DNA from: Ignavibacteriales bacterium
Lineage (GTDB): Bacteria; Bacteroidota; Ignavibacteria; Ignavibacteriales; SURF-24
Assembly (NCBI GenBank): GCA_026390815.1
Contig: JAPLFH010000032.1
Span: 56,904-120,903, forward strand
Length of the DNA stretch: 64,000 bases
Direction: 5' to 3'
Positions 1 to 37,546 of this stretch are shown here, in pieces. The position numbers and the translations under genes were made by a program. Below the pieces are notes generated by a model. That model was not told the origin of the DNA, did not search any database, and saw only the letters and a program-made list of their open reading frames with translations. The first letter of the stretch is position 1, and each line of letters starts with the position of its first letter.

Positions 1-1130
1 TACTTGGACAAGTAGTAATGTAACTAACGTAAAACTTGAGTACACAACCAACAATGGAACAAACTGGAATACAATCATTGCAAGTGTGGCGGCAATACCT
101 GCAAGCTACAACTGGGTAATCCCAAATGCACCTTCAACTAACTGCAAAGTAAGAATAAGCGATGCTGGTGATGCAACGGTAAATGATCTTAGTGATAATA
201 CTTTTACAATTTCTCAAAAGTCGATTAATCTTACTTCTCCAAATGGTGGAGAGAACTGGCGTGTAGGAACTCAACATAATATTACCTGGACGAAGTCCGG
301 ATTCACTTATGTAAAAGTAGAATACACAACAGATAATGGAACAAGCTGGATAGTTATTGATCCGAGTGTTGATGCAACTCTTGGAATGTCCTGGACTGTT
401 CCTAATACACCTTCAGCAAATTGTAAAGTAAGAGTAAGTGATGCCGGTGATGCAACGGTAATTGATCTTAGCGATAATATTTTTACAATCTATCAGCCAG
501 CAGTTACTGTAACTTCTCCAAATGGCGGTGAGAACTGGTTGGTTGGAACTAACCAGAACATTACTTGGACAAGTAGTAATGTAACTAACGTAAAACTTGA
601 GTACACAACCAACAACGGAACAAACTGGAATACAATCATTGCAAGTGTGGCGGCAATACCTGCAAGCTACAACTGGGTAATCCCGAATGCTCCATCAGCA
701 AATTGTAAAGTAAGAATAAGTGATGCCGGTGATGCAACGGTAAATGATCTTAGTGATAATACTTTTACAATTTCTCAAAAGTCGATTACACTTACTTCAC
801 CTAACGGAGGAGAAAACTGGCGTGTAGGAACTCAACATAATATTACCTGGACGAAGTCCGGATTCATTTACGTAAAAGTAGAATACACAACAGATAATGG
901 AACAAGCTGGATAGTTATTGACCCAAGCGTTGATGCAACTCTTGGAATGTCCTGGACGGTTCCCAATACACCTTCAGCAAATTGCAAAGTAAGAATAAGC
1001 GATGCCGGTGATGCAACGGTAAATGATGTAAGCGATGGATTATTTACAATCAGTACTTTACCAGTGCCCGTAATTGCATTAACTTCACCGAATGGCGGTG
1101 AGAACTGGCTGGTTGGAACTAACCAGAACA
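1..1130 (+). repeat. Near-identical tandem nucleotide repeat, period ~561 bp, 2 copies (1-561 and 562-~1130), followed by progressively diverged copies (~1131-1700, ~1800-). The array probably continues upstream of the window.
   Basis: nt 1-130 are almost base-for-base identical to nt 562-690, and 166-560 are almost identical to 721-1130. Each unit encodes two of the ~95-aa domains. Confidence 0.85.
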
Positions 1131-14489: not shown

Positions 14490-14677
14490 TGGAAGATGTA
14501 GAAAATTATTTATGACAACCAAATGGCTTGCATTAGTCCTTTCATTATAATCTTACTATCACTTAGAATTTCACTATCTCTTTCAAGATGTATATCTGTA
14601 AGAATCTTTATTTTCTTCTTTATTCCCTTTCCTTTCCTTTTTATCTATTTTTAGGCAACCGATCAGGAGTTTTGCGG

Positions 14678-17600: not shown

Positions 17601-17716
17601 ATTATCTTCAACGTAAATGCGAAACCATAGACCGGCAAATAGATCAGCTCGTTTACGGGCTTTACGGCTTAACCGAAGAAGAAATAAAAATTGTAGAAGG
17701 AGCAAGCAACCCATAG
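14678..17716 (+). CDS. Type IIG restriction-modification enzyme (MmeI/Eco57I-like fused PD-ExK endonuclease and gamma-class N6-adenine DNA methyltransferase). It is solitary, with no BREX partner genes.
   Basis: RBS aggag lies 8 nt before the ATG at 14678; the ORF-track start at 14588 is probably too far upstream. The N-terminal nuclease motif reads ...RADYTFY...VKFFVEAKKP (D...EAK). Methyltransferase motif I is DIACGSGSFLIT. Motif IV is FDAVVGNPPYLYS. The protein length of about 1010 aa fits the MmeI family. Confidence 0.75.
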   Translation: MSFENAFITVSNLVNDFKENKKVYLSTSYSEADVRNDFINKFFIALGWDVRHDEQKNPYEQEVRVEKPVQVAKAQKRADYTFYLSPNYRDVKFFVEAKKPYHDLENKDYFFQTVRYGWNANTPVALLTDFEEFIILDCRFRPDINEILNYKIKSFTFDDYANEEKFKEIYFLFSREAVADNSIEKFTEALPKPKGKKKALVKESYQKIDEAFLTELDAIRTTLAKSFKKNNAHLTSEELTEATQRTIDRLVFIKFLEDKMIEPHHYVSEFVKPHPVSLSLQRRGTKGEVGLVDKVESNKQELSAWEKFLRASRTLDAKYNGVVFKKSLIDSRNIVEPEDKTFSSICEGLSYDNTPYNFDAIPIHILGSIYERFLGKVVNATDKRVTIDEKPEVRKAGGVYYTPQYIVNYIVDNTIVKLIAGDRPFGKGKTPKEIAKMRFADIACGSGSFLITVYERILDYHKRWYLENPEQAKKDGCILFEGAYRLSLQQKQKILTNNIYGVDLDQQAVEVTQLSLYLKLLEDETTATANDTWVMFKEQILPDLNKNIICGNSLIGTDILNPTLILPFSKGEETGGPACPVGRVNELKLKPMDFENVFPHIFKSSPLGGVEGAGGFDAVVGNPPYLYSAGKRFSEYFKTHFKFNQYQTDYYVYFIERALSLIKNKGKFSYIISDSWLNSDYFKKMRDELLLKHKIEKLIVFDYPVFQNVTLENSIIIISVNEKPSSFDIIRFNSPQKYIIANNLAPNDAYAEGIIKPNKSTITDYLINKIENDSKPLSHFCKINRGIHAYRTDGYGKSKFGGGHQTKKDKELQSYHSDKPIDKTYLPEIKGKDVFKYSFNYSGKYLSYGDWLAEPRTPEYFMNPKVVLRKILGDKIIGTFISEPLAIDQSLYILIVEKNEEAVLKTFLGLLSSRLAAWYLKNKYSIFDTLYPWFTIKQLSTFPTKIIDNKLHSLADQMLTTKKQLQQAKTESDINYLQRKCETIDRQIDQLVYGLYGLTEEEIKIVEGASNP
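15507..15530. repeat. In-frame GC-rich hairpin insertion (tccctctcc-ttacaa-aggagaggga) inside the Type IIG gene, followed by a partial third arm (gggagagg).
   Basis: 9-bp perfect stem. It encodes ...PVSLSLQRRGTKGEVGL... Confidence 0.6.
16372..16427. repeat. Two adjacent in-frame GC-rich hairpins inside the Type IIG gene: cctccccttt-agt-aaaggggagg (16372-16394) and ccctgcctgtccggtaggcaggg (16405-16427, a variant of the 14468 element).
   Basis: 10-bp and 8-bp perfect stems. They encode ...LILPFSKGEETGGPACPVGRVNE... The GC content is sharply higher than the surrounding gene. Confidence 0.65.
16489..16505. repeat. Third in-frame GC-rich hairpin (ctcccc-tttg-gggggag) about 10 codons before the NPPY motif.
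   Basis: Encodes KSSPLGGVEGAGG immediately before FDAVVGNPPY. Confidence 0.5.
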
Positions 17717-20240: not shown

Positions 20241-23200
20241 ATGAAAAAGTATATTTCCATTACTCTGTCCACTTTTGTTCTGATTCTGTTATTAGGAACA
20301 AAAGTTTTTGCAATATCTAAAACAACTTCACAATCAGGCAATTGGAGTGCATCATCCACGTGGGGTGGCAACCCTTCTCCTGTAGCTGGTGATGATATAA
20401 TTATAGATGGCGGATTCACTGTAACAGTGGATATTCCCGATGCAGTTTGTTTAAGCATTCAACTCGGCGGTTCTGCACTTGGTCTTGGAACCGGAACACT
20501 TTTATTTACTGGTGGATCTCAGGTAACAGTATCAGGCGCTGTTTCAATTGGACCATTTAACAACAACAACACCGCAGGCAGTGTAATTATGTCTAATGGT
20601 GGTACACTTATTTGCGAGGGATTTATTGTAGGTAGGTTAGGAACTTGGACGCCTGGAACGGGAACCATTGAGTTGACGGCTACCAATACAATTCCTAATA
20701 ATAACAATATTATATTTAACAATCTTACAATAAGTAGCGGTATAACCACGCTCTCCCATAACGTAGATGTAAATGGTAACCTGTTAATCAATACAAGCGC
20801 AACGCTTAATGGTGGAGCTAATACATTAACGGTGGGAGGTGACTGGACGAACGATGGTTCATACGCTGGAAACACTGGTACTGTTACATTTAAAAAAACT
20901 GGTAATCCAACTATCTCAGGTACCGGAATAAACAATTTCAACCTCATAAGGGTAAACCTCGGTACAAGTATTAATAATACGCTGGAGGTATTGTCGTCAC
21001 ACTTTAATGCTCCTGATGGGTTTCTAACTCTTACTAATGGGACGTTCAAAATGTCCGGAACATTCACATTTACAAACACATTTCTTGTTGGACCAAGCTA
21101 TAATATTCAACCAACATCCGGGTTATGGATCAACAATCCGAATGTAACTGTAGTTGCTCAGGCTGGTGGAATCTCTTTAAGAGGATTGTTAAGAATTTCT
21201 GCAGGAACATATAACATCGGAACAGGTATAGACAACTCTCTTACATATGTTACAGGTTCATCTATCATTATCGAAGGTGGATCACTTCACATTGCAGGTC
21301 GGTTAAATGGAAATAATTCAACCGCTACCACTACCTATAATCAAAGCGATGGGGTGGTATCTGTCGTAGAACAGGGTTCCACTGATCCAGTATTTGCTGG
21401 TTTTGATCTTAGTGTTGTAGGCTCTTCATTTACAATGGCTGGTGGTAATATAATCTTGAGAAATGCAACAAGTGCCCCAACAGATTACCTTAATAATTCA
21501 TCAGTCGCGATTGTTACCGGAGGTACACTTCAGATAGGTGATGCAGGTAGTTTAAATGCCCAGGTTATACGCATTCAGAGCCCTCGTCCAATTGGCAATC
21601 TTCTTGTCTTCAATGCAACAGCACAACTTGTTAGTTCAAGTATTAGCGTTGTTAACAATGTTACTGTACAAACAGGAAGAACACTCAATGCAAATGGATT
21701 CAATATATCGTTGGGCGGAGATTGGTTTAACATCGGTACATTCATAGCCGGTGGCAATACCGTAACGTTCAATGGATCTGTAGCTCAAACACTAACTAAC
21801 CCCAGTGGAGAGCAACTCAACAACCTCACAATCAATAAAACAGCAGACACCCTAACACTGAAAAATTCCATAACAGTCAATAATACATTTAACCTTGCCC
21901 AAGGTACAATTGAAGTAGGCAACCATACTTTAACACTTAACAATACTGTAAATGGAGCTGGAACACTGATAAGTGCAGGCATTGGTATTGTCAACTATAA
22001 TCAGGGCAGTCCAGGGCAAAACATTCTTGCAGCCAACTATGGTAACCTTGTATTCAGCAACTTCATTAAGACACTTGCACCATCGGGTATAATTAGTATT
22101 TCAGGAACGTTTACACCAGGATCTTTAAGTGGGCACACGGTTACGGGCAGTACGCTGAACTTTAATGGAAGTTCTCAAGATATCCCGGCTTTCATTTACA
22201 ACAATCTTATTATTAGTGGTAGTGGTATAAATACAGGCTCCGGAACTATTACAGTTGGTGGAAACCTGACTATCAACTCTGGGGTCACTTTCTCCGGTAC
22301 ATCTACACTTAATCTCAATGGTTCAGTTCACACAAATGATGGTACACTAATTACTTCAACGCTCTCAGTTGGACCTGGTGCTGTATTTACAAACAATGGA
22401 ACTACTTCAGTCAGCTTAGCGCTAAATGGAGCCGGCACACTTACACAAGGATCTGCCGGAATACTTAACATTGGTGGTACAGTTGGAATTAACACTCTTA
22501 ATGCTTCATCCTCTGGTAGCTCCATAAATTACACTGGTAATGGACAGACAATTGTTCCTGTAGTTTACTACAACCTAACACTTTCTGGATCGGGAACACC
22601 TATTCTTACTGGATTAAACACAATAATTGGAAATTTCACTCTCTTGGGTAGTGTAACTCCCGTAGCTGCAACGGGAATAACCATGGGTGGAAATTTTTCA
22701 ATTAACTCCGGGACGTCGTTCGATGCAGGTAGTTTCTCTCACTCACTTGCAGGCAACTTTAACAGCTCAGGAACATTCATCGCAGGTACCAGCACATTTA
22801 CTTTGAGTGGTACGAGTGCCCAGACTATTAGTGGATCTACATTTTATAATCTGTCAATTGCTAACTCTTCAGGTGTAACAATCACAAGTGATGAAACCGT
22901 AAACAATACACTCTCACTTGTTAATGGTTCCATATCTATTGGGGCTCACACGCTCAACCTCAATGGATCTCTTTCATTCGGAACGGGCTCACTGGTTGGT
23001 GGTTCATCTTCAAATATAGCAATTGGCGGTTCTGGCACCAGTACAATTCTGCCAACCATTACTTTGAACAATCTCTCACTTAATCGAAGCAGCGGTAGTT
23101 CATTAACCGGAGATATTACAATTAATGGAAATCTAACAATCGCCAACGGCACTTTAACAACGAATGACCATATCATCACTCTTGCACAAAGTGGAATTCT

Positions 23201-24857
23201 TTCTGAAGTTGCCGGACAACCGGTTATTGGCAATATCAGCACGACTCGGAATATCACTGCAACATCCGGCATAGAATCTTTTGGGAATATTGGAGCTGAC
23301 ATAGTGTTGAACGGTATTGCACTTGGTAATACGACAGTCTTAAGGAAAACCGGCATAACATCTACTGGAAATGGACACAACTCAATCAAGCGGTCTTTCG
23401 AAATTGTTCCAGCTACCAACACCGGATTAAATGCAGGTTTAATATTTCATTTCGATTCAACTGAATTGAATGGGCAAAATTCCAGTGCACTTGAACTTTA
23501 TATGTCTAGAGACAATGGGACTACATGGAATAATAATGGAGGAACCGTAGATTTATTGTTAAACGCTATTAGCATAACAGGAGTTAATGATTTTTCTCAC
23601 TGGACTGCCTCGGATACGACTAATCGAATTGGCAATACTCCTACTCCTGCAACGTTCTCCATCAACCCGGCAGCAGCAACCATTGGCGATCCAGGTTTTA
23701 GTATAACGGTTAATGGTGTAAATTTCGTCAATGGCAAATCCGTCATTCGGTTTAATAGTAATAATAAGACAACAACGTTTATAAGCAGCACACAATTAGT
23801 TGCATCAATTCCTACAAGTGATCTTCAAATCGCAGGAACATTTCCAGTAACGGTCTTTAATATTGATGGTGGTGGATTATCTAATTTGCAACCATTCACA
23901 GTAGCTTCTCTGCCACCTACAAAGATTAGTGTGGAAACACTTGCAGATGGATCAGGAATAATTGTTCCTCCACAGGCACTGCCATCAGGGTCATCAATCA
24001 CAGTTTATGCTATTTCAAGAGACGCTTTAAACCACTTTGTTGCAAATGTAGCAGCCGATGAATGGGCTCTGGAAAACATTTCGGGTGGTGTTGTATTATC
24101 TGATCTGGTACCATCTCCTGATAAAAAAAATGCTGTGTTATCGGGGCATTTGATTGGTGCTGCCACTATAAAATCCACTTCCGGTCCATTGGTTACAATT
24201 CCATCGGGGACAGTAACAGTTACGCAAGGTACAGTGGCTAAAATAAGAGTTGAGACTGCTGCAGATGGCTCTGGGGTGGTGGTTCCCGCAGATACATTGA
24301 TCTCAGGATCTTCAATAACTGTTTACTCAATTGCAAGAGATAGCTTTGACAATTTTATTGAAAATGTTGCCGCTGATGCATGGAGCCTCGAGAATATCAA
24401 TGGTGGTATTGTTGCTTCCGATCTGGTTGCTGCAATTAATGGAAGGAGCGCAGAATTCAATAGCCATTCTTCAGGCAGCGCTAACATAAAGGCAACATCT
24501 GGGGCTTTAACTATTATTACGTCTGGTACAATCTCCGTCGTACAACCTACAGGAATAGAAAAAGGAGAACAACCCATCTCATTTGCGTTGATGCAGAACT
24601 ATCCAAATCCATTTAATCCATCTACAACTATAAAATATGCATTACCAAACGAAAGCAAAGTTGTGTTATACATTTACAATATTTTTGGCGAACAGGTTGC
24701 GGAGCTTGTAAATGAAATTCAACCAGCTGGTTATTACAATAAAAAGTGGTCAGCAGAAAATTTATCAAGCGGAATTTACCTTGTTAGAATAAATGCGAAA
24801 GCAATTGGTAAAGAAGAAAATTATAATAAGATTATAAAGATGCAGCTTGTAAAGTAA
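20241..24857 (+). CDS. Giant secreted beta-helix/adhesin-like protein (1538 aa) with two tandem Big/IPT-like domain pairs and a T9SS C-terminal sorting domain.
   Basis: Signal peptide present. The body is Gly/Thr/Asn-rich with about 20-residue pseudo-repeats (GG.LT.N..GT..., NGS). ...ADGSG..VP......SGSSITVY.I.RD...NF..NVAAD.W.LENI.GG... is duplicated. C-terminus MQNYPNPFNPSTTIKY...KMQLVK. Confidence 0.75.
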   Translation: MKKYISITLSTFVLILLLGTKVFAISKTTSQSGNWSASSTWGGNPSPVAGDDIIIDGGFTVTVDIPDAVCLSIQLGGSALGLGTGTLLFTGGSQVTVSGAVSIGPFNNNNTAGSVIMSNGGTLICEGFIVGRLGTWTPGTGTIELTATNTIPNNNNIIFNNLTISSGITTLSHNVDVNGNLLINTSATLNGGANTLTVGGDWTNDGSYAGNTGTVTFKKTGNPTISGTGINNFNLIRVNLGTSINNTLEVLSSHFNAPDGFLTLTNGTFKMSGTFTFTNTFLVGPSYNIQPTSGLWINNPNVTVVAQAGGISLRGLLRISAGTYNIGTGIDNSLTYVTGSSIIIEGGSLHIAGRLNGNNSTATTTYNQSDGVVSVVEQGSTDPVFAGFDLSVVGSSFTMAGGNIILRNATSAPTDYLNNSSVAIVTGGTLQIGDAGSLNAQVIRIQSPRPIGNLLVFNATAQLVSSSISVVNNVTVQTGRTLNANGFNISLGGDWFNIGTFIAGGNTVTFNGSVAQTLTNPSGEQLNNLTINKTADTLTLKNSITVNNTFNLAQGTIEVGNHTLTLNNTVNGAGTLISAGIGIVNYNQGSPGQNILAANYGNLVFSNFIKTLAPSGIISISGTFTPGSLSGHTVTGSTLNFNGSSQDIPAFIYNNLIISGSGINTGSGTITVGGNLTINSGVTFSGTSTLNLNGSVHTNDGTLITSTLSVGPGAVFTNNGTTSVSLALNGAGTLTQGSAGILNIGGTVGINTLNASSSGSSINYTGNGQTIVPVVYYNLTLSGSGTPILTGLNTIIGNFTLLGSVTPVAATGITMGGNFSINSGTSFDAGSFSHSLAGNFNSSGTFIAGTSTFTLSGTSAQTISGSTFYNLSIANSSGVTITSDETVNNTLSLVNGSISIGAHTLNLNGSLSFGTGSLVGGSSSNIAIGGSGTSTILPTITLNNLSLNRSSGSSLTGDITINGNLTIANGTLTTNDHIITLAQSGILSEVAGQPVIGNISTTRNITATSGIESFGNIGADIVLNGIALGNTTVLRKTGITSTGNGHNSIKRSFEIVPATNTGLNAGLIFHFDSTELNGQNSSALELYMSRDNGTTWNNNGGTVDLLLNAISITGVNDFSHWTASDTTNRIGNTPTPATFSINPAAATIGDPGFSITVNGVNFVNGKSVIRFNSNNKTTTFISSTQLVASIPTSDLQIAGTFPVTVFNIDGGGLSNLQPFTVASLPPTKISVETLADGSGIIVPPQALPSGSSITVYAISRDALNHFVANVAADEWALENISGGVVLSDLVPSPDKKNAVLSGHLIGAATIKSTSGPLVTIPSGTVTVTQGTVAKIRVETAADGSGVVVPADTLISGSSITVYSIARDSFDNFIENVAADAWSLENINGGIVASDLVAAINGRSAEFNSHSSGSANIKATSGALTIITSGTISVVQPTGIEKGEQPISFALMQNYPNPFNPSTTIKYALPNESKVVLYIYNIFGEQVAELVNEIQPAGYYNKKWSAENLSSGIYLVRINAKAIGKEENYNKIIKMQLVK

Positions 24858-27773: not shown

Positions 27774-28355
27774 CTAATTTTGCGATTCATAATATTCCTT
27801 TGCTTTCTTAGTAACAGACAAGATGAAGTTGCTTTTTTCTTCTGTGTATTTTACTCTGTTGTTTGCATATTCTACTGACAACTTTCTCTTTAATTCATCA
27901 TAGCGTTTCGCTTCCGCAGGAAATTGCCGAAGATAATCTCTGAAATAAAGCCTATCCCATAATTCAGAATCTGCCTCTGCCATATGAATGTGATGTGTAC
28001 GTTTGCCTTCTAAATTTCGCTTGATGAACCAAGCGTAGTACGGTGGACCATCATCACCAAAAGCTGGGCGCCAAAAGTATTCATAACCTTCAGCTTCCAA
28101 AATAGGTACAATTTGCTTTTTTGTATCTTCTAAACTTGTAACTTCCACCAGAATATCAATAATTGGTTTTGCAGAAAGACCAGGGACCGCCGTACTACCA
28201 AAATGCTCAATTCTTTTAACGATATTCTTGGGCAATTTCCTGCGTAAAAAAGCGGCTTCATCTTCAAACATTTTTGACCACGACAAATTATAAGGAACGA
28301 TAAATATTTCCTCTTTCACTAATTCCTGGATACGTTTTAGCTTTTTTTCATCCAT
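27774..28355 (-). CDS. GrpB-family (UPF0157) nucleotidyltransferase-fold protein.
   Basis: HFGSTAVPGLSAKPIIDILVEV is the hallmark GrpB motif. Length 193 aa. Confidence 0.75.
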   Translation of the reverse strand: MDEKKLKRIQELVKEEIFIVPYNLSWSKMFEDEAAFLRRKLPKNIVKRIEHFGSTAVPGLSAKPIIDILVEVTSLEDTKKQIVPILEAEGYEYFWRPAFGDDGPPYYAWFIKRNLEGKRTHHIHMAEADSELWDRLYFRDYLRQFPAEAKRYDELKRKLSVEYANNRVKYTEEKSNFILSVTKKAKEYYESQN

Positions 28356-28458
28356 ATTAATTAAGCAAAATTAACATTTCACATAAATTTTGGTTTGCGA
28401 AATTGGAATTTGATCTTTGTTGTTTATTCCGGAATCAGGATTTATTATTCTCAAACAC

Positions 28459-29238
28459 TCAATCTCTATGTACAACTGTTGCAGAAGCCTGCCTTGCCGG
28501 AAGAATAATTATTTCTGCAAGATTGATATGTGCCGGTCTTGTTACAATGAAAATTATCGTTTCAGCAATATCTTTTCCGGTTAGTGGCTGTAATCCTTTG
28601 TAAACGTTCTTTGCTTTTTCTTCATCTCCGTGGAAGCGGATATTGCTGAAGTTTGTTTCAACTAATCCAGGATCGATTGTACTTACTCTTATGTTTTTAT
28701 CTACCAGATCCATTCTTAAAGATTTTGTGATTGCATCCACAGCATGTTTGGTTCCGCAGTAAACTCCTCCTTTGGGATAAGCTTCGTGTCCTGCAATTGA
28801 GCCGATGTTTATTATATGTCCGTTCATTCTTTCAACCATGCCGGGTGTAACAGCGCGCGTTACATAAAGCAAGCCTTTTACGTTGGTATCTATCATTTCT
28901 TCCCAGTTATTAAAATCATCCTCAAAAAGTTTTGCCAATCCGCGGGCTAAACCGGCATTGTTAATCAGAATATCAATTTGCTTAAACTCTTCCGGCAATG
29001 AATCAACGAAGCTGTCAACTTCATTTTTATTTCGAACATCTACTTTATCAAAATGGATTTTGATGCCATATTCTTTCTTTAATTCTTCAGCAAACTCAGT
29101 TAGAAGATTTAATCTTCTTGCACAAAGGATTAAATTAGCGCCAGCTTTGGCAAACTCAATAGCGCACGCTTTTCCGATTCCAGATGTTGCACCCGTTATA
29201 AATACAATTTTGTTTTTAAGTGATTCCATAATTCCCAT
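28459..29238 (-). CDS. Short-chain dehydrogenase/reductase (SDR) family NAD(P)-dependent oxidoreductase (YdfG-like).
   Basis: TGATSGIGKA cofactor motif, NNAG, and a catalytic YCGTKHAV (YxxxK). Confidence 0.85.
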   Translation of the reverse strand: MGIMESLKNKIVFITGATSGIGKACAIEFAKAGANLILCARRLNLLTEFAEELKKEYGIKIHFDKVDVRNKNEVDSFVDSLPEEFKQIDILINNAGLARGLAKLFEDDFNNWEEMIDTNVKGLLYVTRAVTPGMVERMNGHIINIGSIAGHEAYPKGGVYCGTKHAVDAITKSLRMDLVDKNIRVSTIDPGLVETNFSNIRFHGDEEKAKNVYKGLQPLTGKDIAETIIFIVTRPAHINLAEIIILPARQASATVVHRD

Positions 29239-29335: not shown

Positions 29336-32300
29336 CTACCCATTCTCTCCGCAAATTCTTGCCATCTGTAATATGTAAAAACGGAGCAAGTCTTGTTCTT
29401 TCTGCGTAAGTGCCTGCTTCTCGATAACCAAAATTCTTTCAACATCTTTCAACGCGCGGATAACATCAATTGGTACTTCTACCATATTGCCAGGCAGGCG
29501 GGAAAGATATTGAACAGAAGCAATTAAAAACTGCCTCATCGAATCATCAATTGATCCTTTAAGCAGGTCAGCTAAATTTGCACCAACATTTATCTGGTTT
29601 GCACCAACCGAAAAAATATTTTCAGTTCCTTCAACATCTTTGGAAACGGAATAGAGTGCACGGGATAATTCCACAAAACTTTCCACCTGCTGCAGGATAG
29701 GCTTCTCAAGCATCTCCCAGATTTGCGCACGCCAGAATTTTACTTTCTCAGGAATCTCTAGCAATTCTTTCACTTGATTTATCCAGCTTTTATCAATCTC
29801 ACCAGATATTTCTGATTTCAGCAAATTAAAGTTGGTATTAAATAAATCCGGTTGAAGAAGAACTGCAAGATCGGGACGCAAAGCTGGCAGTAAATCAGCA
29901 ACAAATTTTTCTCCTTCAAAAAATTCTGCTACGTTTATTCCATGCCGTCTAAGCAGTTCCTTCTGAAGCAATCCAAGGAATGAAAACATTGAATCAATAT
30001 CTTCTCGTAAGATTAATAAAGCCGAGTTTCCGGCTGGAAATGCTTTCTCAGTTAATGACAAATATTTTAATCCGGGATCATGATAAATCCTTAGCGAATG
30101 CAGAATTTCATAAACTGGTAAGCGTGGCAATATAACGTCACTTACCAGGGAAGAACTCTCACCTTCGGTGAATTTCATCCTTTCAAATTCGCGCAGGCTG
30201 CGGAATAAACCGGTGGTTAGCTGGTTGATTCCAAGTATCATCGTCTGCGCCTGGTTATGCCCAATCGCTCTCAACAAACTTCCGTGATGAGAAAGCGGTA
30301 TGGTTCCGGAAATTCTTTCAAGGACTCTTTGCCCGGCATTTTCTCCAAGATTTCTGCTCGGTCTTACTACCGGACGGTCCCGCAAATTTGGTGTAGTACG
30401 TGAAATGAAATATGAAATTGCATGAATACCAACCACATCTTCCTCAGTTCCATAAAGAATTGTGCGGAAATTTTTAGTAACAATTTCACAAAACTTTTCA
30501 TACAGTTCGCTTTTCTTTCCGATGGTTAAGCGTTCTAATTCCTGGTAACCCCTGGTGCCGAACTGCAAACGAGTATCCAGCAAAGGTTCTGCCGCTCGGT
30601 AAATTTCTTTTTCGTAAAAATGCTGCGCCTGCTTAATATGATAGAAAAGCTGTGCTCTTTCTTTAACTGAAATGAACCGGAGTTTTTCCGCAAGGTTGCT
30701 CTGGAAGGTTCTTAAATCGCCTCCGGAAAAAACTCCAAGCAAAGGACTTGTAGCATACTCAGTACTTTTTCTTGTTGAGTCGTTAAGATTTTTAATTAAG
30801 CGCTGCTGGTTTTCCTTGGATGATATGAATGCCGGTTCACCTGCAACCGAAGAATAATATCCACCCTGGCGCTGCATTGGTTCGCCGCTGCCAAGTTTTA
30901 TTCTTACATCAGCAACAATTCCTTTTTCTGCCAGCCATTTAATTGCAGTTTGTTTCGCTTCTTTAAACAAAGCCGTACCTGCGGGCTGCCCTACAGCCTG
31001 ACTTAAATCTGACCCAGCAATAAACAATTCGCAAATCATTTCTGTAAATCGTTTTTTTGTTTCCTGATTTAACCTTCTGCTTTGGATTGAATATTCCCAA
31101 ACACGGTTAAGATAATTTTCTATGTTACGGACAGTTTTAATATCTTCAAAAAGAGGAATGATCCAAACTGGCGGAAGATTGCTGTTCGGTTTTTCGCGAA
31201 GAGAATGTTCCCTGCGCGCAACAAGTTTTCGATCCAATGCAATCAGAGCTTCCGGTTCAGTAGACATACTAACTTGCAGAGCCAGGATCATCCCGGGATT
31301 GCCACATTCACCGGAGATTTCGTTTATCTCCATTATATTGTGAACAGTTGTATCGATGGAAAACTGATCGCGTGCCGTAATCATCTTTTGATGGATACGC
31401 GGAGTGAGCAAAAACCGGTTTAATAAATTTTTATACAAACCGGCAACCAACGCAAGTTCTTTATGCTGCAAATTATTTTTAATCTGAGGCAACAGCGAGT
31501 GGAGTGTTTTTCGTAAATGTTTATTTAACGAAAAATAATATTCAAGATTGTTTCTTCGCTGCAATCGCAAGTCGAGCATTTTCTTTTCAGTTCTATCATT
31601 GTGCTGCCATAAAGCATAAAGCGGATCTTTTGCAACATGTAGCTTCATTCCCAGGCGGCGCGCACGCCCGGTTTCTATGTTAAACGGCAGAACGCTTCGG
31701 TATCTTTTTTCAAGTTGGTTCGTTAGGATTGTAATTTCGTTTAATAGCTTCCAGAAATTAATATTCTTATTGGGAAGTTTTAATAATTCGCTGGAAAGAG
31801 TATCCTCAATTTTAATTGAATTATCATACTTCAACAAAGTATTCAACAAGATGGAAAGCTGGTTTACATTTTCAATAAGTGCCGAAGCCACCAGGCGGTG
31901 CCCTTGTCCAGAAGGTCTTGTGCTTCCATCCCAATCGCCCCAGAAAGATAAAACTGATTGGAAAGATTCATTCGAATTCATCTGCAGGTATTCTTCTGCA
32001 GCAATCATATATCGCAAATCGCAAACAAGCTCATCCGCTTCCTCTTTCGATTTTATTGTAACATTCAATCCAAGAAATTCTTTAATCAAAGCATCAGATG
32101 TTTGTTCGATCAGATCATTTGGTAATGAACTTCCTCTGATCAGGCTGCCGATTATCTTATCAATTAAAATATCAACCTGAAGGGAGTACATTTGAGTTGG
32201 ATGCACAGTGCGGTCATAAAGCCGGTGCTTAAAAAGCAATTCTCTTTTTTCAAGACTTTCTTTAAATAATTCTTTCTCTAAAAGTTCAGTAAGAGCTCTT

Positions 32301-34990
32301 CCCTGATCTGCTCCAGCAAAAGACAAAACTGCATTGGCAATTTCAAGATTGTCTTTGAAACGTTGTTCGAAGGTTCTGATTCTATCGGGAAGAAAATCAT
32401 TTATAAAATTTCTCGAAAATGTTTCGTGATTAATTCCTGCCGAAAATAATTTTAATCGATTCCCGATATTTTTTCTTGCGCTTTCATCAATTCGTTTTGA
32501 AAAAGAATGCCACTTTTCATTAACATCCGGAAATTGATTTCTCGCTTCAGATGATTTTGATGTTCGAATAAATTTTCTTGCGTTGTAGTTGGCAGCTTCC
32601 TCAGCAATCATTCTGTTCAAATCAATTAAAACTCGCCTCGTTTTTCTAAAGAGTTCTTCGGGTCCATCTTTTCCACCAAGGGTTAAACGAAAAGTTTTTC
32701 TTGCCAGCTCAAATCCTTTTGCTGTACGCGCAAAAGTAGAAAGCGGTACCAAACCAATCCCCTGCGTTGCCAAACCTGATGCAAGCCAATCCAGCGATAA
32801 ACCGGATGGAAGATTCTGGATTATCATTTGCGGATACATACTTCCTTTTGGACCTTTGATTTCAATGCCGAAAGGATTCCTTTCTGCAGGAAGATTTTCC
32901 TGCGCGTCATTCAGCGCCTTCATCCGCTCAAAGAAAATTTGATTACGTAAAAGCCAAAAAGAACTAACGTATTCCGATCTGTTCCTGTAAAACAAATAAG
33001 CAATTAACGTTGCCATTATATTCGGTTTTATCTTTTCAATCTGCGCAGCAAATTTTTCTTTTACTTCAGGATGTGGAATGTGGGCAACTGCCAGTCTTGC
33101 ACCTGCAAAGCAATCTGTTTTAGAAAGCGAATGCATGGTAAAAACGAATTTCCTTTTTTCAGCATTAACATATCCGTTCTTTACAAGATCGAGTGTAATC
33201 TGCTGAATTGTTTTAACGCCGGATAGTTTTTTTGCCGGAGCCACATTCTGATATGAAAGATCATCAATAATAAAGATGTCTCTTTCAAGCAGCCATTTAA
33301 TCAGGTGCGCAAGTTTCTCTTCGGCAAAAACCTGTCCGCTTGCATTATGCGGATTGTTGAAAACCACCGCTCCGTTTTTATTCCAGTTTGGATTTTCATC
33401 CAGCTTTTTAGTTACTATGCTGATAATTCCGTCAACATCAAGATCAAGCTCATCGGTTAACGGCACTACAGAGACTGACGGAAAGCAGTGTTCGTACGTC
33501 CAGCTATAGTCGCATGTAACCGCTTCTTTAATTCCGCAATGAAACCCAAGCAGACTTAATCCAGTTCGTGCTGAACCGCTTATAACGAAAGAATCTTTTA
33601 ATTTATATTCAGGATGATGATTAATAAACGAGACCAAAAAATTATTTATCAGTTCATCAAACCACTTTTTAGAATTTATATTGCTGAATAAAGAATCCAA
33701 AACTTCTTTAGATGATAAGTTAGAAAATGAATCTTCGTTGAAGAATGGGAAAGACATTCCGTTAAAATATTTATTTGTTAAGGATTCTCCCTTTTCCAGA
33801 ATAGAATTTATTCTGCCATCAATTACTTTTGTTTTGGATTCGATCAGATCAGAAATTTTATTCGATATTATTTTTGTATGAGTATAGAAGTTGCTCCCGA
33901 GCTGTGTTGTAGGTAAAACATTTTCCTGTGATGGTTCGGAACTAATTTTTAATGCCGCGCTGCCATTCTTTTTATGAAAATTATTTTTTAAAAGAAATGT
34001 AAGAAGCTCAGCTTCGGCAGAAGCAGGCGTTCCTTTCAACTGAAAATGAATTGCGTCGAGAGTTTTTAAATATTCGGAATTCCCCGCAACAAAAACTAAA
34101 GATAGTTCAGAAAAAAGAGGTGATAGAACCGCCGGCGAAATGTAACGCACAACTCTATTCATCATCTTTGCTTCGCGTGCAAGGGAAAGATGATTAGGTG
34201 CTTCGTTGGCTTCAATAAAAAATAGTGGGTTCTCTAAGCTTAGAAGACGGAGATTTCTCCGTGTCTCTTCCCGTAAATTTTTTCCTATTAAAAAGTAGGT
34301 TGGGGCTGCATTGTTCTGAATGAATTGTGCTTTTATTTCTTCTGTTAAAAGTTCTTCGTTACTAGAAAGTGTATTGAATTCCAAATGCGAAAAATTTTTC
34401 AAATAAACTGGCAATTCAATTCCGAAAGTTAAAATTCTTGCCGGAAGCTTAATCAAATTTTTATTTAATGCATGAAACAGTATTCTAAAACATTCCCAGA
34501 TACCACCGCTGTTGATGCTGCACTCACGCTTGCCGGATTCCCTTCCTAAATCATATTCAAGCGGCTCCTGTTGTTCTTTTGTAAGCCAGTTATGAAAATA
34601 TAAAATTAGTTCGCTTGGATTTTTTACATTATATCCACCACCCGGCATATAAGGAACACTTTTCTGGATTGTTGTCTGAACAAACTCCAATAGTTTCTTT
34701 TTGTCTTCATTCCAGCCAAGTTCATCCAAGATCGAATCGAGCGTATTTTCCGTAATATCAGACTGACTATTTCCTAATCCAAGTACAGTGCGAAAAAAAA
34801 GTTGGGTGAGCTGCGCATCTTCAATCGGATTACCGATATGAAAATTAACACGTTCCTTAACTGGTACCGGAGAAATAGCCGTAGCTTCGCTTATTTCAGA
34901 AATCTTGGCGGCTTTAAGCGGCTTAAGTCTGAAGTAACTTAAATAATCCTGTTCTATATTTTTTGTTTTATTATTCGTAATCATTCCCAA
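29336..34990 (-). CDS. Giant three-part protein (1884 aa). The N-terminal ~440 aa has no recognisable domain. A complete class I/II PLP-dependent aminotransferase domain follows (aa ~440-780, nt ~32650-33673). The C-terminal ~1085 aa is a divergent phosphoenolpyruvate carboxylase (PEPC)-like domain (nt ~29339-32590).
   Basis: Aminotransferase motifs: ISGSARTGLSLL, VVFNNPHNASGQVF (NPxNxSG), IFIIDDLSYQ (Asp/Tyr), MHSLSKTDCFAGARLAVAH (PLP Lys, SxSK...GxR), and the C-terminal small domain ...LVPLSTFAR...FRLTLGG. PEPC motifs appear in canonical order: RTVHPTQ (TAHPT catalytic His), SFWGDWDGSTRP (SWMGGDRDGNP), LQVSMSTEPEALIAL (VISMAKTPSDVLAV), IIPLFEDIKTV (PLFETxxDL), FIAGSDLSQAVG (MIGYSDSAKDAG), KLGSGEPMQRQGG (FHGRGGSIGRGG, with the first Arg missing), LRAIGHNQAQT (LRAIPWIFAWTQ), and the C-terminus ...ICGENG (QNTG). 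Confidence 0.65.
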   Translation of the reverse strand: MGMITNNKTKNIEQDYLSYFRLKPLKAAKISEISEATAISPVPVKERVNFHIGNPIEDAQLTQLFFRTVLGLGNSQSDITENTLDSILDELGWNEDKKKLLEFVQTTIQKSVPYMPGGGYNVKNPSELILYFHNWLTKEQQEPLEYDLGRESGKRECSINSGGIWECFRILFHALNKNLIKLPARILTFGIELPVYLKNFSHLEFNTLSSNEELLTEEIKAQFIQNNAAPTYFLIGKNLREETRRNLRLLSLENPLFFIEANEAPNHLSLAREAKMMNRVVRYISPAVLSPLFSELSLVFVAGNSEYLKTLDAIHFQLKGTPASAEAELLTFLLKNNFHKKNGSAALKISSEPSQENVLPTTQLGSNFYTHTKIISNKISDLIESKTKVIDGRINSILEKGESLTNKYFNGMSFPFFNEDSFSNLSSKEVLDSLFSNINSKKWFDELINNFLVSFINHHPEYKLKDSFVISGSARTGLSLLGFHCGIKEAVTCDYSWTYEHCFPSVSVVPLTDELDLDVDGIISIVTKKLDENPNWNKNGAVVFNNPHNASGQVFAEEKLAHLIKWLLERDIFIIDDLSYQNVAPAKKLSGVKTIQQITLDLVKNGYVNAEKRKFVFTMHSLSKTDCFAGARLAVAHIPHPEVKEKFAAQIEKIKPNIMATLIAYLFYRNRSEYVSSFWLLRNQIFFERMKALNDAQENLPAERNPFGIEIKGPKGSMYPQMIIQNLPSGLSLDWLASGLATQGIGLVPLSTFARTAKGFELARKTFRLTLGGKDGPEELFRKTRRVLIDLNRMIAEEAANYNARKFIRTSKSSEARNQFPDVNEKWHSFSKRIDESARKNIGNRLKLFSAGINHETFSRNFINDFLPDRIRTFEQRFKDNLEIANAVLSFAGADQGRALTELLEKELFKESLEKRELLFKHRLYDRTVHPTQMYSLQVDILIDKIIGSLIRGSSLPNDLIEQTSDALIKEFLGLNVTIKSKEEADELVCDLRYMIAAEEYLQMNSNESFQSVLSFWGDWDGSTRPSGQGHRLVASALIENVNQLSILLNTLLKYDNSIKIEDTLSSELLKLPNKNINFWKLLNEITILTNQLEKRYRSVLPFNIETGRARRLGMKLHVAKDPLYALWQHNDRTEKKMLDLRLQRRNNLEYYFSLNKHLRKTLHSLLPQIKNNLQHKELALVAGLYKNLLNRFLLTPRIHQKMITARDQFSIDTTVHNIMEINEISGECGNPGMILALQVSMSTEPEALIALDRKLVARREHSLREKPNSNLPPVWIIPLFEDIKTVRNIENYLNRVWEYSIQSRRLNQETKKRFTEMICELFIAGSDLSQAVGQPAGTALFKEAKQTAIKWLAEKGIVADVRIKLGSGEPMQRQGGYYSSVAGEPAFISSKENQQRLIKNLNDSTRKSTEYATSPLLGVFSGGDLRTFQSNLAEKLRFISVKERAQLFYHIKQAQHFYEKEIYRAAEPLLDTRLQFGTRGYQELERLTIGKKSELYEKFCEIVTKNFRTILYGTEEDVVGIHAISYFISRTTPNLRDRPVVRPSRNLGENAGQRVLERISGTIPLSHHGSLLRAIGHNQAQTMILGINQLTTGLFRSLREFERMKFTEGESSSLVSDVILPRLPVYEILHSLRIYHDPGLKYLSLTEKAFPAGNSALLILREDIDSMFSFLGLLQKELLRRHGINVAEFFEGEKFVADLLPALRPDLAVLLQPDLFNTNFNLLKSEISGEIDKSWINQVKELLEIPEKVKFWRAQIWEMLEKPILQQVESFVELSRALYSVSKDVEGTENIFSVGANQINVGANLADLLKGSIDDSMRQFLIASVQYLSRLPGNMVEVPIDVIRALKDVERILVIEKQALTQKEQDLLRFYILQMARICGENG

Positions 34991-35104
34991 AACAAATTGA
35001 AAGCAACAAACTAATTCACGCGGTTTTTTAAATAGAAATACTCTTAATCTTAATCTTACTCTTCTTTTAAACTTTATGAAAGAAGAGTAAGAGCATGAAT
35101 CAAA

Positions 35105-36094
35105 TTACTTCTGCTCCTCAATCTTCAATTCAGCTTTCTTAGAAGTTGATTGAACCAGGCGCTGTAAAAATGATTGTAAGATGCCAACAAACTGTGTGCT
35201 TTGATCAACCTGATCCGGCGAAAGTGAAACAACTGTACGCGCATTCTTCAAGCTCTGGCTTGCCTCTGCAAGGCGTGCCATCTGCGGAGAAAGCATTAAA
35301 AGTTCAGGACTGTTCTTCAGCAAATCCATTTCCTTTTTATCAAGCTCCAACTGCTTTTCTCTACGTTTCAATTCCTCATCCAGTCGCTGCTGTGCAAGGA
35401 TTGCTTCCTTTTCTTCGCGTGCTTGTTTTAAATCGTACTTTTTTATTTCAAGGTTATGCTCTAAAATGGTAATCTGCTCATCGGATTTGTATTTAAGCTG
35501 GGCTGCTGCCATGCGCGCATTCTGATTTGCAGTTTCAGTAGTTTCCAAAATTCTTGCCGCTTCCTGCTGGCGCATAGCTTCGGCAATATCTTTATCAACC
35601 GGATCGATTGAATGAATTGAAAGAGAAATAACTTTTAATCCAAGCGCTTCTGATGTACTAGTTACTTTACCCAGAAGAAAATTATAAATCTTCTCAGAAG
35701 ATAATTCCTCAATTTCATATTTCTCAGTAAACTCCCTAACATAACCCTGAACAGTTCCTTCCAATTCCTTGCAGGCTTTTAAGATTGCATCTTTATTCCA
35801 TCCGCCAACACGGATTAGAGCAAATAAATTATCCAATGCCGCTGCGGCAGTTACAGATAATTTAACCAGCAGCTTCAACTTACCTTTTGCCTCAGCTTCT
35901 ACAGTTAAGGTAAAGGATTGAATGGTTGCCGGAATTGCCAGGCTAAAATGGCGCGAATAAAACCGCGATTTTCTTTGAAGTATTTTGCCTTCAACCTCGT
36001 GTAAAACAATCTGGTCCGGTCTCTTGATTCTGTATTCAAATAATACTGCGGCAATTAAGATTACAATTACAATTATTGCTATGGTTACAAACAT
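35105..36094 (-). CDS. SPFH/band-7 (flotillin-like) membrane protein with C-terminal coiled coil.
   Basis: N-terminal TM segment MFVTIAIIVIVILIAAVLF. SPFH-like core ...GLKVISLSIHSIDPVDKDIAEAMRQQEAAR... Glu/Lys-rich coiled-coil tail. Confidence 0.6.
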   Translation of the reverse strand: MFVTIAIIVIVILIAAVLFEYRIKRPDQIVLHEVEGKILQRKSRFYSRHFSLAIPATIQSFTLTVEAEAKGKLKLLVKLSVTAAAALDNLFALIRVGGWNKDAILKACKELEGTVQGYVREFTEKYEIEELSSEKIYNFLLGKVTSTSEALGLKVISLSIHSIDPVDKDIAEAMRQQEAARILETTETANQNARMAAAQLKYKSDEQITILEHNLEIKKYDLKQAREEKEAILAQQRLDEELKRREKQLELDKKEMDLLKNSPELLMLSPQMARLAEASQSLKNARTVVSLSPDQVDQSTQFVGILQSFLQRLVQSTSKKAELKIEEQK

Positions 36095-36372
36095 TTTTTT
36101 ATTACTCCTATACTCAAATTGACTTTATAATTATACTAAAAAAGGAGATGGATTTCGAATTTACAGACTAAGAAGCTAAGGGCAAATATACTATTCCCGA
36201 AATAAAATACAAGTTAAAGGTGAGAAAATGCAAAAAAAATTATATGATTGTAGTAACAAAAAAATTTGTTCTGAGTTAAGTTATTTGCTCCTGTCAAGGT
36301 GTGGACTTTGACAGCCGAGAAAAACAAGTAATTAAGTATATGAATAAATATTTTTTCATTTAATAACCCCTT

Positions 36373-37302
36373 CTATTTAATTTTGCCTTGTTCAAACTTT
36401 TTATTCAGTCTTTCTACATTCTTTTTGATTATTGGAGTTAGTTGTTCTTGTATCTCTTTCGAATTAAATAACTCTTTATTGTATTTATTATAAAAACTTA
36501 GTGCATTTAATGTTATATATGAATCTGGAAATTTTTTTAATAATTTTAAAAATATTTTTTCAAGTGTACTTTTGTCTTTTTCAAACCGATATATTTTATT
36601 GAGTAGCTGATAAAAGGACGGTAAATAATTACTAGTATAATATTTTTCAAAAAGATTTAAAATCTCCTTTTTTAATAATTCTTTTTTAGTTTTTTCATAT
36701 GGTTTTTTATCGTTGTATTTGTATTCTAGAATTTTCATTTCTTTTAAGGCTAAAATGTCTGTTTCTTCAGTAGGATGTTTTACTTTGAACTGTACCCATT
36801 CAGAAAAAAAATCTTTTTTCATTTTATTTTCTATAAATTCCCCTGGGCTATCATAATCAACATAATTGTATTTAACGCGCATTTGATATTTACCTGGTAA
36901 AAATGATTTTTTGAAATATGTATATCCTGTTCCAATTCTTGGATCGTTACCATACCAATCAGATAGCCACATTGTAAGATATTTTGTTTCTCCAGGTAGT
37001 AATTTACTTCCCTTTGATAAAAAATCTTTCATTACAACATTGTAATTTTCAACTTTTTTTAATCTTTTATTAAGTTCATCTAATACTTGAATATCTACTC
37101 TTGTTGCCTCCTGTGAAAATACTGGTTCTTCAATATAGATTGCCGAAACACCTATGTTTTTTATTTCCAATAAAACTACTATTACTTCCCCTTCCAGATA
37201 TTCCTCTTTATCAAGTATGGTTCTTAATTCCATTTCTTGGCTATATGTTTTCACATAAAGGAAGAAGAGAATAAAAAAACAAATAATTATATTTTTCATC
37301 AT
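36373..37302 (-). CDS. Secreted hypothetical protein (309 aa, Lys-rich).
   Basis: Signal peptide MMKNIIICFFILFFLYVKTYSQ. No recognisable motif. Confidence 0.5.
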   Translation of the reverse strand: MMKNIIICFFILFFLYVKTYSQEMELRTILDKEEYLEGEVIVVLLEIKNIGVSAIYIEEPVFSQEATRVDIQVLDELNKRLKKVENYNVVMKDFLSKGSKLLPGETKYLTMWLSDWYGNDPRIGTGYTYFKKSFLPGKYQMRVKYNYVDYDSPGEFIENKMKKDFFSEWVQFKVKHPTEETDILALKEMKILEYKYNDKKPYEKTKKELLKKEILNLFEKYYTSNYLPSFYQLLNKIYRFEKDKSTLEKIFLKLLKKFPDSYITLNALSFYNKYNKELFNSKEIQEQLTPIIKKNVERLNKKFEQGKIK

Positions 37303-37318
37303 TTTCTCCTAAAATTTC

Positions 37319-37473
37319 CTTGGCTGTCAAGAACCATGAGTCTGTCCGAGAACTAGTATTGCAAGAATAAAAATCCAATAAGAGGGGGTTATAAATTATT
37401 TAAATGCAATATTGTGAAAATTAATTTAACAAATCTAAGTTCTCGGACAGACTCCCATTCCTTGACAGAATTG
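37319..37473. repeat. MITE-like or long-hairpin element: ~35-bp imperfect inverted repeats (perfect 17-bp core gagtctgtccgagaact / agttctcggacagactc) flanking an ~83-bp AT-rich centre. It is followed by the atcccgctagcgggat palindrome (37477-37492).
   Basis: Left arm 37319-37354, right arm 37438-37473, read directly. It sits in the intergenic region between two minus-strand genes. Confidence 0.55.
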
Positions 37474-37546
37474 TTCATCCCGCTAGCGGGATTATGTTCA
37501 CAAAACTATTGGATTGAATTTCGCATCCACAATTATAAAAACTCGT

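Follow-up and report, generated by a model that had tools for sequence, protein, structure and literature searches.

A single gene in a 64,000-nucleotide stretch of DNA from an Ignavibacteriales bacterium (assembly GCA_026390815.1, contig JAPLFH010000032.1, positions 56,904 to 120,903; hereafter the window) encodes a protein in which, with high confidence, an aminotransferase is joined to a divergent relative of phosphoenolpyruvate carboxylase (PEPC). This three-domain enzyme of ~1,880 amino acids (aa) and a membrane-anchored scaffold protein of the SPFH type, encoded directly upstream, would constitute a conserved two-gene module. The explanation that we judge best overall, and probably correct, is that the module consists of a bifunctional enzyme and its SPFH scaffold. 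Here, we describe the locus, the three domains, their distribution and conservation, and the partner gene, and weigh the reactions that such a protein could carry out.

The gene lies on the reverse strand at 29336..34984 and ends with a stop codon at 29336-29338. Its open reading frame (ORF) spans 29336..34990, or 1884 aa counted from a TTG codon, and its translation is free of stops; residue numbers below follow this count, and coordinates are those of the whole window. The likely start is the ATG at 34984, giving a product of 1882 aa, since orthologues begin at the corresponding residue, Met3; the sequence GGGA precedes this codon. A first-pass annotation of the window, made from the sequence letters, had described a single ORF, and the uninterrupted frame and the architecture kept across homologues bear this out. 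It had also pointed to a possible frameshift or assembly join at ~32600. GC content and GC skew run through this position without a break, the frame is open, and the fusion recurs in 368 species genomes from independent assemblies that include isolates; both a frameshift and a chimera were rejected on these grounds.

Three domains, all encoded on the reverse strand, are separated by two variable linkers. The N-terminal domain (aa ~15-338, 33977..34948) is followed by linker 1 (aa 339-425, 33716..33976), which is partly disordered and then forms a long helix; in the AlphaFold2 (AF2) model its predicted local distance difference test score (pLDDT) is below 50 at aa 339-376, and it has zero invariant columns. 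The class-I pyridoxal 5'-phosphate (PLP) aminotransferase domain (aa ~426-800, 32591..33715) is followed by linker 2 (aa 801-915, 32246..32590), helical in the AF2 model and with 1 invariant column in 115, and by the PEPC-like domain (aa ~916-1884, 29339..32245). Every motif quoted in the first-pass annotation was recovered in the order given there, with codon coordinates verified. The aminotransferase region carries NNPHNASG (aa 545-552), DDLSY (aa 576-580) and SLSK...GAR (aa 621-632). The PEPC-like region carries TVHPTQ (aa 928-933), SFWGDWDGSTRP (aa 1015-1026), PLFE (aa 1279-1282), AGSDLSQ (aa 1325-1331), the remodelled Gly-rich loop KLGSGEPMQRQGG (aa 1365-1377, 30860-30898), LRAI (aa 1573-1576) and ENG at the C-terminus.

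Profile and model identify the middle domain as a genuine and complete class-I PLP aminotransferase, as had been proposed. PF00155 matches the whole protein with 40.3 bits (E 3e-10) and the isolated domain with 45.0 bits (E 1e-11) against a cutoff of 19.7, and the Schiff-base lysine motif and the PLP-binding residues are all in place. The AF2 model of residues 1-812 (mean pLDDT 79, predicted template-modelling score (pTM) 0.81) contains the seven-stranded large domain and the C-terminal small domain of fold-type-I enzymes. The top 50 Foldseek matches of this model in the PDB are all class-I aminotransferases or 1-aminocyclopropane-1-carboxylate synthases, with E values of ~1e-13 and best template-modelling (TM) scores of 0.65-0.70 (normalised by target; range 0.60-0.70). 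In the family profile, SLSK624TD is aligned with the SKT of cystalysin, which carries the PLP lysine; the K624 codon is at 33119-33121. Residues N549, D577, Y580, S623, K624, R632 and R768 are invariant in the family alignments. Following textbook aspartate aminotransferase (AspAT) numbering (N194, D222, Y225, K258, R266, R386), we take these positions to supply the PLP-binding Asn, Asp, Tyr, Lys and Arg, with S623 as the PLP-binding Ser and R768 as the α-carboxylate Arg. The domain shares its fold, PF00155 membership, PLP residues and α-carboxylate Arg with class-I/I-gamma-like enzymes such as the Thermotoga maritima TM1698 AspAT (2GB3), Thermus thermophilus AspAT (1BJW), yeast Bna3 (3B46), cystalysin (1C7N) and Escherichia coli YbdL (1U08), but is only 13-18% identical to them. 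The domain had been called 'aspartate-type' in the first-pass annotation, a specificity that the searches do not support. No NCBIfam equivalog scores above 18-24 bits, where the cutoffs are 350-590. The nearest relatives by sequence are kynurenine/methionine aminotransferases and C-S lyases, all of them weak matches; in the PDB they are Bna3/kynurenine aminotransferase, cystalysin, PatB and YbdL.

The N-terminal domain, which had been left as ~440 uncharacterised residues, is probably a degenerate copy of the aminotransferase large domain that lacks both the lysine and the cofactor. It has no match in Pfam, NCBIfam or the PDB in HMMER searches, which included 16 N-domain members, and its invariant motifs are VNFHIGNP, PYxPxGG, SGG, FFIE and NHLSLAREA. 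Seven strands, with helices between them, are modelled by AF2 at residues 157-303, and they match the strands of the aminotransferase large domain (residues 467-637) in order and spacing. When residues 1-400 were aligned with residues 401-800 in hhalign, 209 columns were colinear (118-345 with 420-678), strand on strand, with P=0.011; the score of 27.6 compares with a maximum of 23.5 in 40 column shuffles and 12.1 in a reversed control. The NNPHN segment is missing from the N-terminal copy in this alignment, and Leu or Ser occupies the PLP-lysine position. Fold-type-I enzymes are obligate dimers with active sites shared at the subunit interface. Because of this obligate dimerisation, the confident inter-domain pTM and the degenerate nature of the copy, the two domains together suggest a single-chain pseudo-dimer with one functional PLP site. 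Class-I aminotransferases homodimerise, whereas here the partner 'subunit' would apparently be supplied in cis.

The C-terminal domain is the least visible to sequence searches. PF00311 and PF14010, the Pfam families of bacterial/plant and archaeal-type PEPC, were matched at E<=10 neither by the window protein, whole or in segments, nor by any of 11 family members, and NCBIfam gave no match for this domain. Searches of the PDB with phmmer and three family profiles returned aminotransferases alone and no PEPC, and a profile search with the C-terminal domain against 1.84 billion representatives reached no canonical PEPC. When the whole protein was scanned with Pfam, NCBIfam and PADLOC, along with five of its segments and with 11 members for the C-domain and 16 for the N-domain, PF00155 alone was found and no defence system was matched. 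The evidence for kinship with PEPC is structural and comes from profile-profile alignment. The AF2 model of residues 800-1884 is poor (pLDDT 62, pTM 0.47), and on this low-confidence model the PEPC fold, a helical protein around an eight-stranded barrel, is recognised. When the model was compared with 350,542 PDB chains, Foldseek returned 37 matches at E<=0.001, all of them plant or E. coli PEPCs (E 1.3e-7 to 2.4e-5, probability 0.99-1.00, 1060-1200 aligned columns). In 38th place came 3ODM, a PEPC of the archaeal type (E 0.035), and unrelated proteins began at E 0.18. Global TM-scores against PEPC are low, 0.12-0.17, because the domains of the C-terminal model are badly packed.

For the alignments, a family profile of 52 members, with sequences down to 35% identity, was compared with a profile of PEPCs from 10 species, built from the ppc gene of E. 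coli and nine others, of 30-58% identity, that are carried on plasmids or chromids. Against the single E. coli Ppc, the family profile was marginal (E 0.063) and improved only when the 10-species profile was used. The hhalign comparison then gave P=0.003, with a significant core that pairs profile positions 432-578 with E. coli 465-590 and takes in the Gly-rich loop as well as ISMA, PLFE and GYSDS. Within it, residues 1231-1299 aligned with E. coli 465-523 at P=1.3e-4. Scores of 36.9-38.6 compare with a maximum of 24.3 in 30 column shuffles and with 30.9 for the reversed alignment, and no short segment outside 1231-1380 is individually significant. At a relaxed threshold the alignment extends over profile positions 22-922 against E. 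coli 26-823, with TAHPT, W..GDxDG, ISMA, PLFE, SD, the loop Arg, RPxxR and LRAI in register. Nine motifs fall in PEPC order and with PEPC-like spacing in this unsupervised alignment.

The active site was examined by comparing residues between the 52 family members and the 10 PEPCs (given below as E. coli → family). Invariant positions are H138→H930 (52/52, in a TVHPTQ context), W248→W1017, D252/D254/G255→D1019/D1021/G1022, S475→S1241, P503-L-F-E506→P1279-L-F-E1282, S542-D543→S1327-D1328, R587→R1374, R699→R1539, R703→R1543, L-R713-A-I→L-R1574-A-I and the C-terminal G883→G1884; R609→R1427 is nearly so (48/52). The catalytic His and the metal ligands, H930, E1282 and D1328, stand in TxHPT, PLFE and SD contexts. 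Other positions are replaced, mostly in a family-invariant manner: R253→W1020, K546→Q1331 (52/52), E141→Q933 and W717→H1578, together with H579→L/M/F, R581→S/C, G583→E1370 and G588→Q1375. W1020, Q1331, S1368 and E1370 are invariant residues specific to this family. The Gly-rich loop FHGRGGxxGRGG here reads K(L/M)G(S/C)GEPMQRQGG, with R1374 kept, and neither the canonical loop nor the bicarbonate-site Lys of GYSDSxKD is present in the 52 members.

In PEPCs, a Glu and an Asp are the metal ligands, and carboxyphosphate is deprotonated by a conserved His (PMC10176493); in the E. coli enzyme, H138, H579 and R587 are important for activity (PMC11832675). The residues used to verify bacterial PEPCs are H138, R396, R587, R703 and R713, which have counterparts in the archaeal type (PMC13147460), and four of these five, H138, R587, R703 and R713, have equivalents here. 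The fifth is ambiguous: hhalign places R396 at W1128/Q1129, while spacing and a predicted strand point to R1198. The latter lies in the invariant segment RF(V/L)xTPR1198IHQK after that strand, with 268 residues from the catalytic His to R1198 (258 in E. coli) and 176 from there to the loop Arg (191 in E. coli). An hhalign pairing of LLTPRIHQ with E. coli LLPRNWQ was rejected as a guide to R396, the E. coli segment being unconserved among PEPCs. Four conserved residues are described for the bicarbonate site, and Flaveria K600 is among them (PMC6363079, citing Gao & Woo 1995 and Kai 2003); by a constant numbering offset it corresponds to E. coli K546. The first-pass annotation had listed a PEPC signature set in canonical order. 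The order stands, but the set is incomplete (K546→Q, R581→S/C, H579→L/M/F, R253→W, G583→E and an ambiguous R396), and no profile matches it.

The conservation peaks of the whole protein coincide with the PEPC-type motifs in sequences down to 35% identity. Invariant columns are most frequent in the PEPC-like core, at 15%, and essentially absent from the inter-domain linkers. That the core is the most conserved part argues for selection on its active site. Since the sequence-model test, the Gly-rich loop and the bicarbonate Lys all fail, the domain is set apart from PEPC proper, and from its profile and model evidence we file it as a putative divergent branch of the PEPC superfamily that is not itself a PEPC.

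The architecture is widely distributed. A search of 5.8 billion clustered proteins gave 702 matches, and among the 120 matches listed, from which length and identity were read, nearly all are full length (1845-1904 aa; one has 1749 aa) and 50-68% identical. PF00155 is the sole precomputed domain in every one of these, and the sources named are Ignavibacteria, Melioribacter and Stygiobacter. In a scan of one genome per species, the protein is encoded by 368 genomes. The carriers include the isolates Melioribacter sp. OK-6-Me, Stygiobacter electus and Rosettibacter primus, and metagenome-assembled genomes (MAGs) from Ignavibacteriota, Calditrichota (one labelled Caldithrix abyssi), KSB1 and Acidobacteriota (Bryobacterales, Solibacteraceae), so that the same full-length architecture, for which a database search had been proposed, is present in four phyla. 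A hidden Markov model of the C-terminal 1085 aa had 242 matches among the 1.84 billion representatives, all of them members of this family or its fragments. In full-length matches (~1700-1950 aa) the domain spans from residue ~700-850 to the end, and the others are shorter and mostly partial; neither a stand-alone C-terminal domain nor a bridging family is found among the 242. This recurrence of the full-length architecture across homologues and genomes marks the fusion as ancient and obligatory, and the family stands by itself in sequence space. In a single MAG locus, the N-terminal ~590 codons, including VNFHIGNPVQD, lie outside the called ORF, ~1.8 kb upstream, which points to a frameshift or a sequencing error there, or to a gene that has become a pseudogene.

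The partner gene (35105..36094, reverse strand) encodes a 329-aa SPFH/Band-7 protein that matches PF01145 with 27.7 bits against a cutoff of 23.6. Its sequence consists of an N-terminal hydrophobic transmembrane helix followed by RIKR, a Band_7/SPFH domain and a long heptad-rich coiled coil, so that a profile match above threshold, a membrane anchor and a coiled-coil tail occur together. Band_7 is matched in 8 of 11 partner orthologues (best E 2.3e-9), and searches with the protein in NCBIfam, PADLOC and PDB sequences gave no match. The positive-inside rule predicts a cytoplasmic location for the SPFH domain, so that it could bind the large enzyme. The partner is found in 74 of 80 related loci by tblastn and in 70 by clustering, always co-directional and directly upstream with a median gap of ~23 nt (69-74 loci, depending on the count), and most loci without it end on that side. 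The most divergent family member, at 35% identity, also has the partner upstream (hhalign E 5e-59). The contig of that member carries a canonical, stomatin-type NfeD and Band_7 pair as well (14722-16811 in the sequence of that locus), ~3 kb downstream of the orthologue, and the SPFH protein of the module is for this reason taken as a dedicated, separate paralogue. No conserved neighbour beyond the SPFH gene is seen in the 80 loci.

A stem-loop lies between the two genes at 35055..35091 on the reverse strand, with a 13-bp perfect, AT-rich stem (CTTACTCTTCTTT / AAAGAAGAGTAAG) and an 11-nt loop. Its fold energy is -16.9 kcal/mol (z -4.8 against shuffles), and no T-run follows it; strong hairpins also occur in several orthologous loci with long spacers. 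The element may be a partial terminator or an mRNA-stability element, and it may set the ratio of scaffold to enzyme.

PEPC and aspartate aminotransferase act consecutively, converting phosphoenolpyruvate (PEP) and HCO3- to oxaloacetate and then to aspartate, and this consecutive action provides a rationale for the fusion. In the mechanism that we propose, the first domain would replace the second aminotransferase subunit and leave one complete PLP site per chain, and the third domain would bind a divalent metal together with PEP, or a related enol-phosphate or 2-oxo acid, and perform phosphoryl-transfer/enolate chemistry of the PEPC type. The resulting 2-oxo acid would be aminated by the second domain without leaving the protein, in the simplest case oxaloacetate to aspartate, while the SPFH partner would hold the complex at the membrane. 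A bifunctional enzyme in which PEPC-type chemistry yields a 2-oxo acid that is then aminated is the most economical reading of the data. The specific route from PEP and HCO3- through oxaloacetate to aspartate, which is predicted from sequence, we put forward only tentatively. True carboxylation is the leading, yet insecure, reading, because no member keeps the bicarbonate-site Lys or the whole of the Gly-rich loop.

Several observations weigh against the proposed mechanism. No sequence model (Pfam, NCBIfam or HMMER profiles) recognises the C-terminal domain as PEPC, K546 of the bicarbonate site is Gln in all 52 members, R581, H579 and R253 are replaced, the Gly-rich loop is remodelled and the R396 equivalent is ambiguous. 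No substrate specificity can be assigned to the aminotransferase, since every NCBIfam equivalog score is far below its cutoff, and both the pseudo-dimer and the membrane tethering are steps that we infer. Melioribacter roseus has been described with pyruvate carboxylase, PEP carboxykinase and malic enzyme and no PEPC (PMC3534657). An extra anaplerotic carboxylase is not obviously needed in an organism that already has these other enzymes of the C3/C4 node, which neither require nor exclude one.

The third domain could instead be active without carboxylating, carrying out another metal- and His-dependent reaction on PEP or a related substrate. It might hydrolyse PEP or transfer its phosphoryl group to give pyruvate, which the PLP domain would turn into alanine, or it might catalyse some other enolate-trapping reaction. 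The exchange of K546 for Gln in 52/52 and the family-wide R581→S/C, H579→L/M/F, R253→W and G583→E look like a site re-tooled rather than decayed. The loss of the Lys and the remodelling of the loop fit this alternative equally well, the metal ligands, the His and the phosphate-binding arginines are kept, the closest relatives of the aminotransferase are not specifically aspartate aminotransferases, and the organisms already hold other C3/C4-node enzymes (PMC3534657). Strict retention of H138, however, fits carboxylation, as this residue is needed in the E. coli enzyme for the carboxylation half-reaction only (Terada & Izui 1991, as cited in PMC11832675). In the hydrophobic pocket, W248, L504 and the position of M538 (here F1323) are either retained or changed conservatively, and the gene context names no other substrate and has no conserved metabolic neighbour. 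We regard a non-carboxylating enzyme as a serious but unlikely alternative.

That the domain is a non-catalytic pseudoenzyme, serving as a sensor of a ligand such as PEP, aspartate or malate, or as a scaffold for oligomerisation or SPFH anchoring that regulates the aminotransferase, we consider improbable. PEPCs are classic allosteric tetramers, the protein already holds one clear pseudo-domain in its N-terminal copy, several canonical catalytic or loop residues are lost, and sequence similarity to active PEPCs is not detectable. Conservation in the protein nevertheless peaks at the motifs of the would-be active site, in a core with 15% invariant columns down to 35% identity, and both metal ligands, the His and the equivalents of R587, R699, R703 and R713 are invariant in 52/52, which is unusual for a decayed site; it is this pattern of conservation that makes a pure pseudoenzyme unlikely. 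Finally, a likeness to PEPC that reflects only chance short motifs in a large helical protein, or a fusion artefact, is very hard to credit: searches at the HMMER level find nothing, the short segments outside 1231-1380 are individually insignificant, the reversed-sequence control reaches 30.9 against 37-39 and the C-terminal AF2 model is of low confidence, but all 37 significant Foldseek matches are PEPCs, with an archaeal PEPC next and the first unrelated match at E 0.18, the nine motifs keep PEPC order and spacing, and the occurrence of the fusion in 368 independent species genomes, isolates among them, effectively refutes an artefact.

Compared with the bacterial and plant PEPCs (E. coli Ppc 1FIY/1JQN, the maize and Arabidopsis enzymes; PF00311), the C-terminal domain is of similar size (~970 aa against 880-970 aa) and has these enzymes as its sole significant fold match. 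It also shares with them the motif order TxHPT, WxGDxDG, (I/V)SM, PLFE, SD, loop R-x-GG, RPxxR, LRAI and C-terminal Gly, and equivalents of H138, E506, D543, R587, R699, R703, R713 and G883 are invariant in the family. It differs from them in the lack of HMMER/Pfam similarity, in the replacements K546→Q, R581→S/C, H579→L/M/F, R253→W, G583→E and W717→H, and in a ~30-aa insertion between the Gly-rich loop and the LR(V/T)xQ motif. Those enzymes are stand-alone, whereas here the domain follows the aminotransferase module in every full-length member. The archaeal-type PEPC (Clostridium perfringens, 3ODM; PF14010) is likewise too divergent for PF00311, and the last two catalytic arginines, 31 aa apart here, are spaced more like archaeal R379-R413 than E. 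coli R703-R713 (numbers from PMC13147460). Unlike the ~970-aa fused domain, however, the archaeal-type enzyme has ~530 aa and is stand-alone, PF14010 does not match the domain here, and the suggested kinship comes from a weak structural score obtained with a poor model.

To our knowledge, PEPC and AspAT are on separate polypeptides in all described cases. In the C4 and anaplerotic pathways from PEPC to AspAT, the two activities belong to separate enzymes, whereas here they would be covalently linked. Co-expression of PEPC and aspartate aminotransferase has been used in engineering (PMC12946523). The SPFH operons of stomatin-NfeD, HflK/C-FtsH and the flotillins resemble the module in that a membrane-anchored coiled-coil SPFH protein is encoded co-directionally beside its client gene, but the neighbouring gene here encodes a very large soluble enzyme of metabolism in place of an NfeD protein or a protease. 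Neither the fusion nor the cis pseudo-dimer nor the pairing with SPFH was found in the literature searched. No description of a PEPC-aminotransferase fusion or of a 'PEPC-like domain' was found there, in agreement with the first-pass annotation, which had taken the architecture to be undescribed, and the genome papers on I. album and M. roseus leave the gene unmentioned.

Other features of the window stand apart from the module. Directly downstream of the large gene are a GrpB-family gene and a short-chain dehydrogenase gene (27774-29238, reverse strand), followed by alaS, which lies near the module in 7 of the 80 related loci and is the only one of the downstream neighbours to recur. A 309-aa ORF upstream of the SPFH gene (36373-37302, reverse strand) has no Pfam or NCBIfam match and sits in a low-GC stretch (0.25-0.30 at 36000-37500 against ~0.38 around it). 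These window neighbours, as well as a GH20 gene, are not conserved with the module. Further away, a 1042-aa ORF (14588-17716, forward strand) with Eco57I, N6_Mtase, MmeI_Mtase and TaqI_C domains looks like a fused type IIG/IIL-style restriction-modification enzyme. Three very large ORFs end in Por_Secre_tail, a type IX secretion sorting domain: one of 2326 aa (86-7066, forward) that also has BNR/YCF48-like, cohesin and Ig-like domains, one of 1538 aa (20241-24857, forward) with no other recognisable domain, and one of 1073 aa (60706-63927, reverse) with a trypsin-like protease domain.

PEPC is among the best-studied carbon-fixing enzymes, and as far as we know two sequence types are recognised, both of them stand-alone. 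The protein described here suggests that there is also a third branch, far more divergent and wholly missed by current annotation, in which the proteins are named 'aminotransferase' only and ~1,000 residues have no domain call. The branch spans hundreds of species of Ignavibacteriota, Calditrichota, KSB1 and Acidobacteriota, which are abundant in sediments, peat and groundwater. It is possible, though short of probable in our view, that this third lineage of the PEPC superfamily, with its re-tooled site, has been hard-wired to a pseudo-dimeric aminotransferase and an SPFH protein as a membrane machine that leads from PEP to an amino acid. Such a machine might carboxylate PEP on the way to aspartate, or it might catalyse a non-carboxylating reaction that is new to the PEPC fold. 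A single-chain pseudo-dimer of a fold-type-I PLP enzyme would be unusual, as is a soluble enzyme of metabolism that is so strictly paired with a membrane scaffold of the SPFH type. If carboxylation is true, the protein would be a natural covalent PEPC-aminotransferase that avoids unstable free oxaloacetate and would be of interest for carbon-fixation engineering; if the domain does not carboxylate, it would represent a new reaction on the PEPC scaffold.

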